Positions 4,775 to 44,632 of a stretch of DNA of 64,000 nt are shown in pieces. The first letter of the stretch is position 1. Each line of letters starts with the position of its first letter. Source of the DNA: Clostridia bacterium (lineage in GTDB: Bacteria > Bacillota > Clostridia > Acetivibrionales > JAFADI01); contig JAOACY010000120.1 in assembly GCA_026417615.1 (NCBI GenBank), positions 24,709-88,708 of the forward strand. The letters run 5' to 3'. A model generated the notes under the pieces. It ran no database searches. It was not told the origin of the DNA and saw only the letters and a list, made by a program, of their open reading frames with translations. The translations under genes and the position numbers were made by a program.

Positions 4775-4780
4775 AAGTAT

Positions 4781-4983
4781 GATTCTACTCAAAGAACAGC
4801 TTTTCTCGGAACAAGATGCAAAAATCACTCGGCGAAGTTGAAGGAATTCCGAAGCCAAAATGCCATGGAGGGCATTTTGAGCATCACGTGACAGGATGTC
4901 ATATTGATACGTGCGAGGAATTGCAAGACAAGTCGATAGTGATTTCATCGAAGTTTCAGAAAATGGGTTCTTGCAGTAGAATC
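4781..4983 (+). mobile_element. Full-length (203 bp) MITE-like nested-palindrome repeat, copy A
   Basis: Terminal inverted repeats are GATTCTACTCAAAGAAC and GTTCTTGCAGTAGAATC. A direct AAGTAT is present at 4775-4780 and 4984-4989. Internal hairpins lie at 4857-4878 and 4889-4901. By hand alignment it is roughly 87 percent identical to the inverted copy at 44060-44262. Confidence 0.75.
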
Positions 4984-5045
4984 AAGTATAAAAAAAGCGT
5001 TTTAAAGTTAATAATTATGAATAGTTTATGTTTGGAGGAGTTAAC

Positions 5046-17429: not shown

Positions 17430-17546
17430 GAATTATTTTTTGTATTGTAGATCGTTACAATATATTATAATAGAATTAAACAACAATCCGATAGAAAATT
17501 GATGTTAAATTTGTGTAAAACAAAACCGTCAATTTAACACAATCGT

Positions 17547-17579
17547 CAAAATGCCACAGACGGCATTTTGAGCATCACG
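17547..17579 (+). repeat. Solo core-hairpin module of the repeat family (copy E)
   Basis: CAAAATGCC-acagac-GGCATTTTGAGCATCACG matches the centre of copies A (4856-4888) and B. The terminal repeats are absent. Confidence 0.6.
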
Positions 17580-17610
17580 ACAATCTATTTTAAATTGGAT
17601 GTGAAACAAC

Positions 17611-20487: not shown

Positions 20488-20827
20488 AATATATTCATTT
20501 CTGGGTCTGGCTTCAAAAGCCGGGAAGCTTGTTTCAGGCGACGAAACCTGCGAAAGGACAATTAAAGCCGGAAAAGCTTTGATGGTGATTGTTTCAATGG
20601 ACGCTTCTGACAATACAAAGAAGAAGTTTTATGACATGTGCAAGCACAGAGACATAGAGCTGAGGTTTTTTGGAGAAAAAGAGCTTATCGGGAGGTATAC
20701 TGGAAAAGAGATACGATCGGTAGTGTGTATTATAGATAATGGTTTTGCCGGACAGTTGGGCAAAATGCTGAACGATTTGAAATGTGAAAGCGGGGGTGAA
20801 TTTATTGTCAAAAGCAAGAATACATGA
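20477..20827 (+). CDS. L7Ae/YlxQ family ribosomal-protein-like RNA-binding protein
   Basis: [15 protein letters not shown].....IK.GKA.MVIVS.DAS.NT.KK is the signature. The gene sits in the conserved position between ylxR and infB. Confidence 0.8.
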
Positions 20828-23800
20828 ACTTGCCAAGGAACTGAATACAACTAGCAAAAGATTAATGGAAAAGCTGGCTGAGATAAACATTGTTGTTAAA
20901 AATCATATGAGCCTTTTGGATGAGAATGAACTGGATGCTTTGTATAAGCACATAGGAATAATAAAGCATGACGATAAAGCACATGAAGGTGAGGAGAGGC
21001 GTCCAATGCCACCTCCACCCAAAGTGGAAGCAAAAAAGGACGCAAAGAATGCTCCTAGAATAATCCGAAAGACCGAGGTGATTATTGATTCGAGCAATGA
21101 GTCGGGTGATTTGAGAAATTCCGGCAGGGCTGACGGTCAGAGAAATGACACAAGACCTGACAGCAAAAATCAACAAAAGCAAAGCTATATAAGACCTGCC
21201 ACTTCGACCTCCGGCCTAAGGCCAGGGTACGTAAGGGATACAGGACCGCAGGTGAGAAAAGATGTTAAAAACACACCAAGAACCGCAGAAATTAATGTAC
21301 CAGCAAAAGAACATACAAAAGAGCAAATAAAAGAGCAAATAAAAGAGCAAATAAAAGAGCCTGTTAAGGAGCCTGTAAAAGTGAATTCAATGCAAGAACA
21401 CAAACCGGTTGTTCAAAAAGATGAAGTCAAGCATTCTGTGGCAGATTTAGCGAAGGAAGCTGTAAAAAATGCTGAGACTAGAATGGAGCAAGGAGAAGCC
21501 GAAAATGCAGTTAAGGCTGTTCACGAACCTAAAAATGAAGCTCCAAGCCGGAACGAGGAAAAAAAACCTGAAGAAAAAGCTCCTGAGAAAAATACAGCAG
21601 CAGTTGAAAGTTCAAAGGCACAAGCTCAAGTTACAATAAATGCAACAGGAGACAAATCGCAAGACAACAGACCGTATGGAGACAAGCCGCAGGGAGACAG
21701 ACCGCAGGGCAACCGGCCCTATGGAGACAGGCCGCAGGGAGACAGACCGCAGGGCAACCGGCCCTATGGAGACAGGCCGCAGGGAGACAGACCGCAGGGC
21801 AACCGACCCTATGGAGACAGGCCGCAGGGAGACAGACCGCAGGGCAACCGTCCATACGGTGACCGTCCGCAAGGAGACAGGCCGCAGGGCAATCGACCCT
21901 ATGGAGACAGGCCGCAGGGCAACCGTCCATACGGTGACCGTCCGAAGGGTGGTTTCCGCCAGCCTGTGAGGCCGCTTGAAATCCCCAAGCCGGAATATAC
22001 GGCAGCCCAAAAGGAAGAACTTAACAATCAGCGGGCGGAAGTAAGGCGTGAGTTCCAGAACAAGGATTTGGACAAAGATATAAAGAGAGAGCAAAAAAAG
22101 GATGCCACAAAGACAGCATCCTCAGCAAAACAGAAGAAATTCAAGCCTCAGACTGTGGTATTAAGTGAGAAGAAGGGCGTTTCGGAGGTTCTCAGTGAAG
22201 ACTTTATACTTGATGAGTTCTACAATGATGATGGCGTCAAGGTTAAAAAGTCCAAGCAGAAGAAGGGTTCTGAGAATAAGCATATACCTCCCAAGGCTGT
22301 ACTTACATCAATAACCATACCTGAAAGCATTACAGTCAAAGACCTTGCCGAGTCACTGAAAAAGACTTCGACGGATGTGATTAAAAAGCTTATGAGTATG
22401 GGAATGATGGCTACCTTAAATCAGGAAATTGATTTTGATACTGCTGCAATTATTTCAGATGAATTTGGTGTTAAGGCTGAAAAACAAGTGGTTGTTAACG
22501 AAGAAGATATACTTTTTGACGATACGGAAGATGAAGAAGGCCTGACGGAGCCAAGACCACCCGTAGTAGTTGTAATGGGTCATGTTGACCATGGCAAGAC
22601 ATCACTGCTTGACGCCATAAGGGAAACGAATGTCATAGACACAGAAGCCGGCGGCATAACACAGCATATAGGTGCTTATACTGTTAAGGTTAACGACAGG
22701 AATATTACCTTCCTGGATACGCCTGGTCATGAGGCTTTTACAGCTATGAGAGCCAGAGGAGCACAGGTTACGGACATAGCCATACTGGTTGTTGCGGCTG
22801 ATGACGGTGTTATGCCTCAGACTATTGAAGCAATTAACCATGCCAAAGCTGCCAATGTTTCAATCATTGTGGCTATTAACAAGATAGATAAGCCTGGTGC
22901 AAATCCTGACAGGGTAAAACAGGAACTGACCGAATACGGCATAGTTGCGGAAGAATGGGGCGGAGACGCCATAATGGTGCCTGTGTCAGCAAAAAAACGC
23001 GAGAATATTGATCAACTGCTTGAAATGATATTGCTTGCAGCCGATATGCTGGAGCTTAAAGCAAACCCCAACAGGCAGGCGAAGGGAACTGTCATAGAAG
23101 CGCAGCTTGACAAGTCCAGAGGTCCTATTGCAACGGTTCTGGTTCAAAGAGGCACCCTCAATATCGGAGATTCAATTGTTACCGGAACTACTGTTGGAAG
23201 AATAAGAGCCATGGTAGATGATAAGGGCCATAAGGTGAAGTCCGCGGGGCCTTCGATACCTGTTGAAATCCTTGGACTTCCTGATGTCCCCGAGGCAGGA
23301 GAAATTTTCTACGCAATTAAGGACGAGAAGGTTGCAAGGCAGCTTGCTGAAAAGAGAAAGCTCAAGCTTAAGGAGCAGCAGCAGCAGAAGGCTACGGCAA
23401 AGGTTTCACTCGATGACCTCTTCAACCAGATCAAGGAAGGAAAGGTCAAGGAGCTTAACATAATTGTGAAAGCTGACGTTCAAGGCTCCGTGGAGGCTGT
23501 GAAGCAGTCGCTGGAAAAACTCAGCAATGATGAAGTAAGGGTTCGCATCATTCATGGCGGAGTCGGGGCGATAACTGAATCCGATGTTACACTGGCTGGT
23601 GTTGCGAATGCGATAATAATTGGCTTTAATGTAAGACCGGGCAGCAATGTTGCAGAAGCTGCCCAGGCGGCTGGAGTTGATATAAGACTGTACAGGGTTA
23701 TATATAATGCTATTGAGGATATTCAGTCAGCAATGAAGGGTATGCTGGAACCGACATATAAAGAGGTTGTGCTTGGACATGCTGAAGTAAGGCAAATCTT

Positions 23801-24053
23801 CAAGGTTTCAGGAGTAGGTACAATAGGCGGCTGCTATGTAACGGATGGAAAGATCGTAAGAAATGCTGAGGTTAGAATTGTGAGAAACGGCATTGTAGTG
23901 CACGAAGGCAAGCTTGACTCATTAAAGAGGTTCAAGGATGACGTGAAGGAAGTTGTTCAAGGCTATGAATGCGGTTTGTCAATAGAAAAATTCAATGATA
24001 TTAAGGAAGGCGATGTCATAGAGGCCTTTATAATGGAAGAAGTGGCAAGGTAA
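20805..24053 (+). CDS. infB: Translation initiation factor IF-2
   Basis: The N-terminus is [12 protein letters not shown]. The G-domain has [25 protein letters not shown] and NKIDK. The C-terminal domains are conserved. TTG 20805 after GGGGGTGA is preferred over the upstream ATG at 20784, but the start is uncertain. Confidence 0.93.
21660..21945 (+). repeat. In-frame 45-bp tandem repeat array inside infB ([15 protein letters not shown] units)
   Basis: The units at 21690-21734, 21735-21779 and 21780-21824 are nearly identical at DNA level. The units at 21825-21869 and 21870-21914 are diverged, with partial units at both ends. Confidence 0.9.
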
Positions 24054-27351: not shown

Positions 27352-27438
27352 GATTCTACCGCAAGAACAGCTTTTCTTGGGACAAGATGAATAAATCACT
27401 CGACGAAGTTTCAGAAAATGGGTTTTTGCGATAGAATC
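27352..27438 (+). mobile_element. 87-bp internal-deletion derivative of the repeat family (copy C)
   Basis: Both terminal repeats are kept (GATTCTACCGCAAGAAC and TTTTTGCGATAGAATC), along with the left and right subterminal modules. The roughly 116-bp centre is missing, and the junction falls at a CGAAGTT motif that is directly repeated in copy A. Confidence 0.7.
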
Positions 27439-35873: not shown

Positions 35874-35915
35874 GATTCTACTGCAATTGAGAAAATGGGT
35901 TGTTGCAGTAGAATC
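35874..35915 (+). mobile_element. 42-bp minimal derivative of the repeat family (copy D)
   Basis: GATTCTACTGCAA ... TTGCAGTAGAATC are perfect 13-bp inverted termini. They enclose the GAAAATGGGT subterminal motif. The copy lies 16 nt after the ABC exporter stop codon. Confidence 0.65.
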
Positions 35916-42673: not shown

Positions 42674-42701
42674 AAGGAAGCAGGGCTGCCTGCTTCCTTT
42701 T
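42672..42701. terminator. Bidirectional terminator between convergent genes
   Basis: AAAAGGAAGCAGG-gctg-CCTGCTTCCTTTT forms a 13-bp stem with A and T runs on either side. Confidence 0.8.
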
Positions 42702-43929
42702 AGAATATATTCTTGTAGGACACTGCATTCCTGCCTTTGTGCTTTGACTGGTAGAGACCGTCATCAGCGGAAGCTATAAGCCCTTTGGCGTCTAAGGCGT
42801 CTGTGGGGTAGTGGGCTAAACCTATGGATACTGTAAAGTGAGGAGACTCAGTTTCAGCCACTTTCTTTCTAAACCGCTCTGCGATAAGCCTTGCCTGTGG
42901 GACAGAAGTTTCCGGCAATACTATTATGAATTCGTCCCCACCGTATCTTCCAAGGCTGTCTATTTCTCTTATACTCCTTAAGGCTATGAGGGCAAGCTTC
43001 TTAATGCACTTGTCGCCCTCGATATGACCAAGTGTATCATTAATTGTTTTAAAATTGTCAATATCAAACATTATAATTGAGAATTCCCTGGTTTCCTTTG
43101 ACTCAATAAGCTTATTTATTGTTTCCATTATTGCAGCCTTGTTATAAGCTTTTGTAAGAGCATCGGTTCTTGCAATATTGCTTAGTTTTTCGTTTGAACG
43201 TTCAATCTCGAGTACTCGCTTTCTGACTTCAAGGTTGAGGTTTTTGTCTACTGCCGCAACCTTTTTCTCTGCCTCCTCAAGCATATTGATAAGTTTCAGG
43301 CCTATTTTCTTGTTGAAATAAAAGCAAAACAGGCAATATGCGGCCAGCCTTAATCCCGGCGAAATATAGGCTGTTAAATACACGGGATGTGATAATGGGA
43401 CTAAACTTGAAGCTGTAATGCAAGCTCCGGCCCATGACAGGACAACTTTGCCGTCTTTTTCGTTTCGGAGTTTTATTATGTATAGCAGAAACAACACCAT
43501 TATTATAATACTCCTTATATGAAAAGCCTTTATATACTGAGGCAAAACAGAATAAGTTTCAATTGCCCAGATAAGGCTGAATGTAAAGGCTGTAAGAAGT
43601 ATTTGAAATGTTTTTTTCTGGCTGATACCCGGCTTAATCCATATTATCAGCAGCAAGGCTGCCATCAGACATAAATCCGACATGGCAGCGAAGGGATATG
43701 CATTGCCTGCATTAGCAGTAAAAAATGAAGCAATATTTAAGGAGAGCGGAATAATAAAAGCATAGCCCAAAAGTTTTACTTGAGAGTGCTTTCTGATTAG
43801 TAAAAAAGCATAGGTGAAAATGAAAAACGAAAAGCAAAGTGACACTACCAGTGAAATCTTATTGGCAGCAATAGAATAAAACATAGAAAAAACCTCCTGG
43901 TTAATATTGCTATGAATAGTAATCGACAT
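42700..43929 (-). CDS. Membrane-anchored diguanylate cyclase (GGDEF)
   Basis: The N-terminal domain is polytopic with about 7 TM segments, followed by a coiled linker. The GGDEF domain has an intact active site, RYGGDEF. An RxxD I-site (REID) lies 5 residues upstream of it. Confidence 0.9.
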   Translation of the reverse strand: MSITIHSNINQEVFSMFYSIAANKISLVVSLCFSFFIFTYAFLLIRKHSQVKLLGYAFIIPLSLNIASFFTANAGNAYPFAAMSDLCLMAALLLIIWIKPGISQKKTFQILLTAFTFSLIWAIETYSVLPQYIKAFHIRSIIIMVLFLLYIIKLRNEKDGKVVLSWAGACITASSLVPLSHPVYLTAYISPGLRLAAYCLFCFYFNKKIGLKLINMLEEAEKKVAAVDKNLNLEVRKRVLEIERSNEKLSNIARTDALTKAYNKAAIMETINKLIESKETREFSIIMFDIDNFKTINDTLGHIEGDKCIKKLALIALRSIREIDSLGRYGGDEFIIVLPETSVPQARLIAERFRKKVAETESPHFTVSIGLAHYPTDALDAKGLIASADDGLYQSKHKGRNAVSYKNIF

Positions 43930-44059
43930 TTTTAAACATTTCGATTATACATAGAATATACCATATTTAATTAAAAGGAAAGGACATACCTCTACTTTTA
44001 ATTTTATATTCTTAGATATTGAGGAATGTCCCAACAAGGTTTTTTGTTATTTTAAAACT

Positions 44060-44262
44060 GATTCTGCTGCAAAAACCCATTTTCGGAAACTTCGATGAAA
44101 TCACTAACACCTTGTCTTGCAATTTCTCGCCCGCATCAATGTGGCATCCTGCCACGTGATGCTCAAAATGCCGTCCGTGGCATTTTGGCATCGGAATTAC
44201 TGCAACTTCGGTGAGTGATTTATGCATCTTGCTTCAAGAAAAGCTATTTTTGCAGTAGAATC
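44060..44262 (-). mobile_element. Full-length (203 bp) MITE-like nested-palindrome repeat, copy B, inverted relative to copy A
   Basis: The termini are GATTCTGCTGCAAAAAC and TTTTTGCAGTAGAATC. A direct AAAACT is present at 44054-44059 and 44263-44268. Internal hairpins lie at 44141-44155 and 44165-44186. Confidence 0.75.
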
Positions 44263-44282
44263 AAAACTATGATTTGCTTTTT

Positions 44283-44450
44283 TTACCCTCTCCACTTCTT
44301 AATCATATAGCCCCAGAACATTCCCTTTGCGAATGACAATGCAAGAATGCCTGCGGCAGCCGCAGCCGTCAGTGTAAGTGTATTTTCATTGTTTTCCTCT
44401 GCTTGCTTTTTATATACTCTTGGATGCCTTCTATATTTTGTATATTCCAT
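44283..44450 (-). CDS. Unannotated 55-aa small membrane protein candidate
   Basis: The translation is MEYTKYRRHPRVYKKQAEENNENTLTLTAAAAAGILALSFAKGMFWGYMIKKWRG. A GGAGGG RBS lies 8 nt upstream. The N-terminus is basic and one hydrophobic helix is present. It is too short to appear in the ORF track. Confidence 0.4.
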   Translation of the reverse strand: MEYTKYRRHPRVYKKQAEENNENTLTLTAAAAAGILALSFAKGMFWGYMIKKWRG

Positions 44451-44632
44451 TTATAATCCCTCCGGCAATAGTCTATTAAAATCTTGTTATATTTAGTTTT
44501 TACTGAAAATTGCGATATATGACGGATTATTATGGTTTATCTCTTTTGCAAATAAATTTCTTCCAAATATTGAATAGTCTGCTTTGTTTTTATTATACTA
44601 GTAATATAAAATTCATCGGAAGGACGGGATAT

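Follow-up and report, generated by a model that had tools for sequence, protein, structure and literature searches.

A dispersed 203-bp hairpin element with 6-bp flank duplications and a TwoAYGGAY-like core in a Clostridia genome

The analyzed stretch of 64,000 nucleotides, hereafter the window, is core chromosome of a Clostridia bacterium. It carries rpsB, tsf, pyrH, frr, uppS, cdsA, dxr, rseP, ispG, and polC, along with rimP, nusA, infB, truB, ribF, ABC exporters, and a two-component system; after these genes come a GGDEF gene, yfmF/yfmH-like peptidases, lgt, and the dcw cluster. Within infB (20784-24053), the N-terminal region harbours tandem repeats of 15-nt period (21603-21962; reported in 16 overlapping registers) that correspond to a repeated pentapeptide-type linker. 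The window has 50 ORFs of 150 aa or more; every one is a housekeeping gene, and none encodes a transposase or reverse transcriptase; no CsrA gene or signature was found within the window either.

The element under study, copy B, is a 203-bp hairpin at 44060-44262 whose sense strand is the minus strand. Its first bases are GATTCTGCTGCAAAAA and its last bases are TTTTTGCAGTAGAATC; accordingly, the terminal inverted repeat at 44060-44075, GATTCTGCTGCAAAAA, pairs with a second one at 44247-44262 (reverse complement GATTCTACTGCAAAAA). An earlier note, made from the sequence alone, had described B as equal in length and about 87% identical to another copy in the window, copy A, as flanked by AAAACT on both sides, and as lying between a small ORF and the start of the GGDEF gene, and each of these readings holds. 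AAAACT is read directly at 44054-44059 and again, identically, at 44263-44268. Downstream of B, on the minus strand and hence on the sense strand of the element, is the gene for a GGDEF diguanylate cyclase (42700-43929; Pfam GGDEF, E = 1.8e-38), with B located 131 nt upstream of its start codon. Upstream is an ORF for a 55-aa membrane-type protein (44283-44450, minus strand), after which B follows at a distance of 15 nt, counted to the duplication. A promoter or leader role of B for the GGDEF gene would fit this position. A promoter and terminator scan found no sigma-70-like site on the minus strand around B, that strand being blank in the scan.

The closest relatives of this genome are Acetivibrio/Hungateiclostridiaceae-like and share merely 65 to 67% identity in YfmF. 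In one of them (GCA_026418695.1, locus L026), the syntenic locus comprising the GGDEF gene, the small ORF, and yfmF lacks the element, the two loci being too diverged for a base-by-base alignment of the empty site. The small ORF keeps its position between yfmF and the GGDEF gene in both genomes despite 65% YfmF identity (56 aa in the relative, L026 9430-9600; 55 aa at 44283-44450, minus strand, in the window). Both versions contain a hydrophobic, probably membrane-spanning stretch, and the ORF probably represents a genuine small gene. What follows it is a terminator-like hairpin in the relative and the element in the present genome.

A BLAST search of B against the window retrieved copy A at 4983-4781, aligned over 203 of 203 positions without gaps (86.7% identity, 27 differences, E = 2.5e-67). 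Copy A (4781-4983, plus strand) is located between rpsB and tsf, beginning 6 bp past the rpsB stop codon and upstream of tsf, and is flanked by AAGTAT at 4775-4780 and 4984-4989. Both A and B have their sense strand on the same strand as the genes next to them. Two shorter derivatives accompany the full-length copies. Copy C (27352-27438, plus strand) is an 87-bp internal-deletion derivative that consists of the left 58 nt and the right 29 nt of the element, joined at a repeated CGAAGTT, and copy D (35874-35915, plus strand) is a 42-bp derivative comprising the two termini only, which form a 14-bp perfect stem. A 13-nt terminus, GATTCTACTGCAA, is found with 0 to 2 mismatches at all 8 ends of copies A to D; across the window, 12 matches to it with up to 2 mismatches were detected, compared to 2.1 expected. 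No larger element bounded by termini of this type was found in the window.

The two separate perfect 6-bp duplications, AAAACT around B and AAGTAT around A, had been taken to argue for transposition, and the termini, the derivatives, and the dispersal of the copies support that view. By our own estimate from local base composition, the chance of a perfect 6-bp flank match is approximately 3 to 6 x 10^-4 per copy, and such a match is seen twice. Perfect flank duplications are absent in copy C, where 4 of 6 positions match, and in copy D. All four copies that bear terminal inverted repeats are directly preceded by T and directly followed by A (4780/4984, 27351/27439, 35873/35916, and 44059/44263), a pattern that admits two readings: an A-N4-T target duplicated over 6 bp, or a 205-bp element with a duplication of only 4 bp. 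The former is favoured, given that the duplications are identical at all 6 positions in A as well as in B.

Copies beyond the window were traced through the translation of an ORF that spans the element, searched among 5.8 billion clusters. This search identified 21 hypothetical proteins, all from one Clostridia bacterium MAG (locus tags N2489_). The 21 ORF-called copies, a lower bound on the number of copies, are spread over 17 contigs, with 5 located at contig ends. Two of these proteins correspond to copy A (P0001) and copy B (P0131). A third, P0003, is encoded on the same 92.8-kb contig but matches no ORF of A, B, or C and therefore, judging by its locus tag, probably lies outside the window. 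In 16 of the ORFs, translation reads through into the flank, revealing at least 12 different right-flank sequences, all of which start with A; all 16 are compatible with T at position 6. The partial ORFs at contig ends (P0125, P0126, P0137, P0138, and P0140) have a common start point in the element (IP.PKC / ILKPKC), such that the repeat family breaks the assembly at one consistent point near the internal hairpin P2, described below.

Outside this MAG, no copy of the element was found in species-representative genomes, JGI metagenomes, IMG/VR, or plasmids; phages were searched with the Rfam TwoAYGGAY consensus only. Scanning 185,579 species genomes for exact 18-mers produced 22 matches of only 18 to 25 nt, which is chance level (approximately 17 expected). 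Scans of metagenomes and viruses with peptide patterns and a 20-base terminal pattern returned nothing or one chance match. In plasmids, the terminus had only chance matches of 19 to 22 nt, and the whole element was unmatched there.

The predicted fold of the whole element is one long hairpin, with minimum free energies of -71.9 kcal/mol for A and -79.3 kcal/mol for B (z of about -7, and -6.99 for B); no shuffled sequence folds as well. Approximately 50 base pairs form a long closing stem, P1, around two inner hairpins. In B, hairpin P2 (44165-44186, minus strand) consists of the 8-bp stem AAAATGCC/GGCATTTT and, on the sense strand, the loop ACGGAC, which reads AYGGAY. Hairpin P3 (44133-44162, minus strand) is built from GCATCA/TGATGC and GTGGCA/TGCCAC around a GGA loop. 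The earlier note had drawn attention to paired changes in the inner hairpin, to an 8-bp stem that is invariant among copies while its loop differs, and to selection on structure as the likely cause. The paired changes in P3 are as described: GTGACA-GGA-TGTCAT in A corresponds to GTGGCA-GGA-TGCCAC in B (reverse complement), with pair 111-119 changed from A-T to G-C and pair 108-122 from G.T to G-C. The P2 stem is likewise invariant. The window contains exactly three occurrences of the pattern AAAATGCC-N6-GGCATTTT (4857, 17548, and 44165), compared to 0.01 expected, and the loop differs each time, reading ATGGAG at 4857, ACAGAC at 17548, and ACGGAC at 44165 (sense strand).

The occurrence at 17548 belongs to fragment E (17545-17579, plus strand), a 35-bp sequence that contains only hairpin P2 and GAGCATCACG and in which the GGA of the loop is gone (ACAGAC). 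Fragment E lacks the termini of the element but has on either side a perfect direct repeat of 6 bp, ACAATC (17539-17544 and 17580-17585), the same length as the duplications around the full copies. One ORF-called copy, P0144, lacks approximately 24 nt around P2. Hairpin P2 may be a separable module.

The changes between copies were scored on a structure defined independently of them: the minimum free energy structure of one copy was fixed, and the differences of the other copy were mapped onto it, which guards against circularity. Four base pairs differ between A and B at both positions yet remain paired (14-190, 51-154, 52-153, and 111-119), and none was disrupted by a double change; among one-sided changes, 4 to 5 preserve pairing and 4 to 5 break it. 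Under a null model of 27 random substitutions with the same mix of transitions and transversions, the probability of four or more compensated pairs is 0.0006 to 0.0014, and the probability of disruptions that few is 0.0001 to 0.00025. Copy A with 27 random substitutions is expected to fold at -51 +/- 5.5 kcal/mol, compared to -79.3 kcal/mol for B, which is thus 5 standard deviations better. With copy C included, one more compensated pair appears, the fifth (9-195, T-A to C-G), and pair 14-190 gains a third type. By pair counting, 5 pairs changed on both sides, compared to 0 to 1 when the partners were slid by 1 to 3 columns. The 27 differences between A and B fall on 12 of the 136 paired positions and on 15 of the 67 unpaired ones.

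For the other copies in the MAG, which are known as protein translations only, nucleotide sequences were back-translated by parsimony, a procedure that hides synonymous changes. Among these, pairs 51-154 and 52-153 are complementary in 25 of 26 cells (13 protein-derived copies cover them), and the copies form two subfamilies plus a third pair type; this complementarity mostly reflects shared descent and not independent events. The sense and antisense strands differ too little in fold energy and in G.U pairs for the functional strand to be named. The excess of pair-preserving changes, the scarcity of disruptions, and a fold of B far more stable than the mutated expectation support the view that the predicted fold is under selection or actively maintained, so that the suspicion of structural selection was largely right, with support extending beyond the stems that the earlier note had considered.

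A permissive Rfam scan of 43900-44500 (601 nt) yielded a single match, to the TwoAYGGAY RNA (RF01731), which covers the core of B (44087-44235, minus strand) and the full model (1-168) at 42.7 bits (E = 1.6e-5), the gathering threshold being 43 bits. Copy A scored 28.2 bits against the same model (E = 0.03). An Rfam scan of the window at the gathering threshold lists neither copy, with B falling 0.3 bits short. The confidently aligned portion comprises the P2 loop ACGGAC, an AG linker, the P3 loop A-GGAU, and the CGG that follows; the two inner hairpins of the earlier note are thus the two GGA-loop hairpins of TwoAYGGAY. The AYGGAY consensus is complete in the P2 loop of B (ACGGAC) and matched at 5 of 6 positions in that of A (ATGGAG), and the P3 loop reads A-GGAU, without the Y, in both. 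Among the protein-derived copies, the GGA of P2, which is a Gly codon, is invariant in 20 of 20, with variation at loop positions 1, 2, and 6; the GGA of P3 is lost in a subfamily of 5 copies.

TwoAYGGAY was described by Weinberg et al. in 2010 from human gut metagenomes, Clostridiales, and gamma-proteobacteria, with a closing stem that is "often very large" according to the supplement, and the original description does not term the motif mobile (PMC2864571). Gardner and Eldai predicted, from its two GGA loops, that it binds CsrA (PMC4333381). Bona fide members were examined in Agathobacter rectalis (NZ_CP143948.1), where one copy scoring 159 bits is directly upstream of a GGDEF gene and a second, scoring 149 bits and 5 kb distant, is flanked by genes for TauE and a chemotaxis receptor; the two copies are co-oriented with the neighbouring genes. 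Each of the two (L028 14666-14935 and 20009-20274) has a perfect outer stem of approximately 46 bp. The outer stems of the two copies have almost entirely different sequences, with both partners altered at 24 pairs and a single partner altered at 1. Neither conserved termini nor a flank duplication was seen in the A. rectalis copies, and their long stem is not a transposase-binding terminal inverted repeat. In Psychromonas ingrahamii (NC_008709.1), at least 5 TwoAYGGAY copies share approximately 330 nt of flanking homology (supplement, PMC2864571), the motif being part of a longer multi-copy repeat. TwoAYGGAY is therefore multi-copy in these two other genomes too, and complementarity of its long stem is maintained irrespective of sequence. 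A co-oriented GGDEF gene is directly downstream both of copy B (core at 44087-44235) and of the A. rectalis copy (L027 2997-3166). This adjacency could be due to chance, given that GGDEF genes are numerous in Clostridia and that these are two post hoc cases; it would also fit a CsrA-type link to c-di-GMP.

Our preferred reading, to which we assign a slightly better than even chance, is that copy B belongs to a genome-specific, 203-bp, non-autonomous MITE-type family that carries a TwoAYGGAY-class RNA core and is co-transcribed with host genes. In this scheme, B would be an inserted element with inverted-repeat termini starting GATTCTACTGCAA, at which 6 bp of an A-N4-T target were duplicated, and end-only derivatives would persist alongside full copies. 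A transposase encoded elsewhere in the genome would move the element as DNA through 6-bp staggered cuts. The interior would be a TwoAYGGAY-class module, with its long closing stem around two adjacent GGA-loop hairpins, and its fold would be kept because the element is transcribed with host genes. The RNA hairpin with its two GGA loops would be bound by a dimeric RNA-binding protein, for which CsrA is the candidate published for TwoAYGGAY, and copies in leaders and spacers (upstream of the GGDEF gene and between rpsB and tsf) could change the fate of the mRNA or titrate that protein. The DNA-transposon part of the scheme is suggested by the exact conserved ends, the equal-length duplications, and the end-only derivatives. 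It is weakened by the lack of a transposase candidate and by the canonical copies, whose stems are unconserved in sequence; the latter observation keeps alive two rivals, arm-to-arm correction and RNA-mediated spread.

According to the first of these, the element is the same mobile DNA but purely selfish, with no role as RNA, and the likeness of its arms has a mechanical cause: arm-to-arm correction while the DNA is in hairpin or cruciform form, or the copying of one arm from its partner. The element is indeed an almost complete palindrome, its sense and antisense fold energies are alike, and the 46-bp stems of A. rectalis, with 24 both-sided changes against a single one-sided one, are more perfect than slow compensatory evolution usually gives. 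However, the compensated pair 111-119 belongs to a stem of 6 bp closed by a loop of 3 nt, on which arm conversion is unlikely to act; 4 to 5 uncorrected mismatches and several G.T pairs persist in each of the copies A and B; and the two-hairpin core is conserved in distant taxa whereas the outer stems are not. We regard this explanation as fairly unlikely. More doubtful still, in our assessment, is spread through RNA, whereby a reverse transcriptase encoded elsewhere would turn a TwoAYGGAY-type transcript into cDNA for insertion at staggered nicks, the apparent terminal inverted repeats being the closing stem of the RNA. Such a route would accommodate the preservation of structure over the full length, terminal stem included, the sense orientation of all informative copies, and the canonical members that have long stems without conserved terminal sequence. 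By term counts, a preprint of September 2026 (bioRxiv 10.64898/2026.09.22.753630) names TwoAYGGAY 52 times, reverse transcriptase 14 times, cDNA 24 times, and DRT 18 times, and connecting these terms is a guess from the counts. In the same counts, "retrotranspos" and "mobile genetic" are absent, as are inverted repeats, CsrA, and GGDEF, and transposase appears once. Spread through RNA is at odds with the exact ends and the 6-bp duplication in both full copies, which have neither a 3' tail nor a 5' truncation, and with derivatives that retain both termini and drop the RNA core. Furthermore, no reverse transcriptase is encoded among the window ORFs or within 20 kb of the A. rectalis copies.

Two further explanations were weighed. 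Copy B might be a fixed cis-regulatory leader of the GGDEF gene, riboswitch-like or protein binding, given its sense orientation 131 nt upstream of the start codon and the bona fide A. rectalis TwoAYGGAY directly upstream of a GGDEF gene. This is very unlikely: copy A is located between rpsB and tsf, the flanks of the other copies are unrelated, flank duplications are present, the syntenic GGDEF/small-ORF/yfmF locus of the relative has no element, and the gene after the second A. rectalis copy encodes a chemotaxis receptor. Finally, the 56- to 77-aa ORF through the element (MQKSL...CHGGHFEHHV...) might encode a real His/Cys-rich peptide that is itself the conserved entity; in favour of this, 21 copies keep the frame open, and it has been annotated as encoding a hypothetical protein. 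We rejected this candidate, which is hardly credible. Between A and B, the internal ORF shows 16 nonsynonymous and 4 synonymous differences, with a pN/pS of 1.00, so the constraint is not on the protein. Moreover, none of the proteins has a precomputed Pfam domain, all 21 of 21 relatives at E <= 0.01 come from one MAG, and the ORFs continue past the element into arbitrary flanks.

The clear duplications, the conserved ends, and the excess of pair-preserving changes suggest that at least some TwoAYGGAY members spread by insertion. A wider generalization, that TwoAYGGAY RNAs in general are the cores of mobile hairpin elements and that this MAG represents one lineage caught in a recent burst, with duplications and termini still visible, is offered tentatively, as an idea that is more probably wrong than right. 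If this generalization is true, the element plants a ready protein-binding RNA module, with two GGA loops for CsrA or another protein, into leaders and operon spacers such as that of the c-di-GMP cyclase gene and that between rpsB and tsf, and post-transcriptional control would thereby be rewired by transposition. MITE-like repeats and TwoAYGGAY are each already known; what is new here is the link between the two, together with clear flank duplications. TwoAYGGAY has been without a settled function since its description in 2010, and this lineage provides a concrete system for asking what two GGA-loop hairpins do. On the practical side, such repeats break MAG assemblies (5 copies at contig ends) and were annotated as hypothetical proteins 21 times in one MAG.

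Among known systems, the family shares several features of the MITE class. Conserved terminal inverted repeats are present, with GATTCTACTGCAA at 8 of 8 ends of copies A to D; the fixed-length target duplication is a perfect 6 bp in A and B and imperfect in C and D; and the noncoding copies are many and dispersed (21 ORF-called copies on 17 contigs, in addition to C, D, and E). REP/BIME sequences and IS200/IS605-type PATEs are likewise dispersed intergenic hairpins, but they are not known to have terminal inverted repeats or target duplications, whereas the present element has both. About 11 of 16 terminal bases of GATTCTACTGCAAAAA resemble GGTTCTGTTGCAAAGT, the terminal repeat of the IS6/IS26 family, a likeness that serves as a lead only. 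IS6-family elements generate 8-bp duplications and move through cointegrates; the duplication of the present element is 6 bp (or 4 bp), and no such transposase was seen in the window. The resemblance to CsrA/RsmA-titrating RNAs, such as CsrB and RsmZ, is one of motif only: GGA in hairpin loops, two per unit, at dimer spacing (PMC4333381). Unlike those RNAs, the element offers only two sites and is a mobile repeat instead of a single sRNA gene. With TwoAYGGAY itself (RF01731), the element shares two adjacent GGA-loop hairpins, the AG linker, CGG after P3, a very long closing stem, a Clostridia host, multiple copies in the genome, and sense orientation relative to flanking genes. It differs in its scores (42.7 and 28.2 bits, compared to 149 to 159 bits for bona fide copies), in a P3 loop that is one base short (A-GGAU), and in its conserved termini and flank duplications, neither of which was seen in the A. 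rectalis copies. Bacterial MITEs that are transcribed as hairpins include Correia/NEMIS of Neisseria, ERIC of enterobacteria, RUP of pneumococcus, and bcr1 of Bacillus cereus. These are small and intergenic, with terminal inverted repeats, a short fixed duplication, co-transcription with neighbouring genes, hairpin potential over the whole length, and internally deleted variants, in all of which the present family resembles them, with co-transcription predicted in its case. It has no sequence relation to any of them, and, in contrast to theirs, its interior corresponds to an independently described structured-RNA family of distant taxa.
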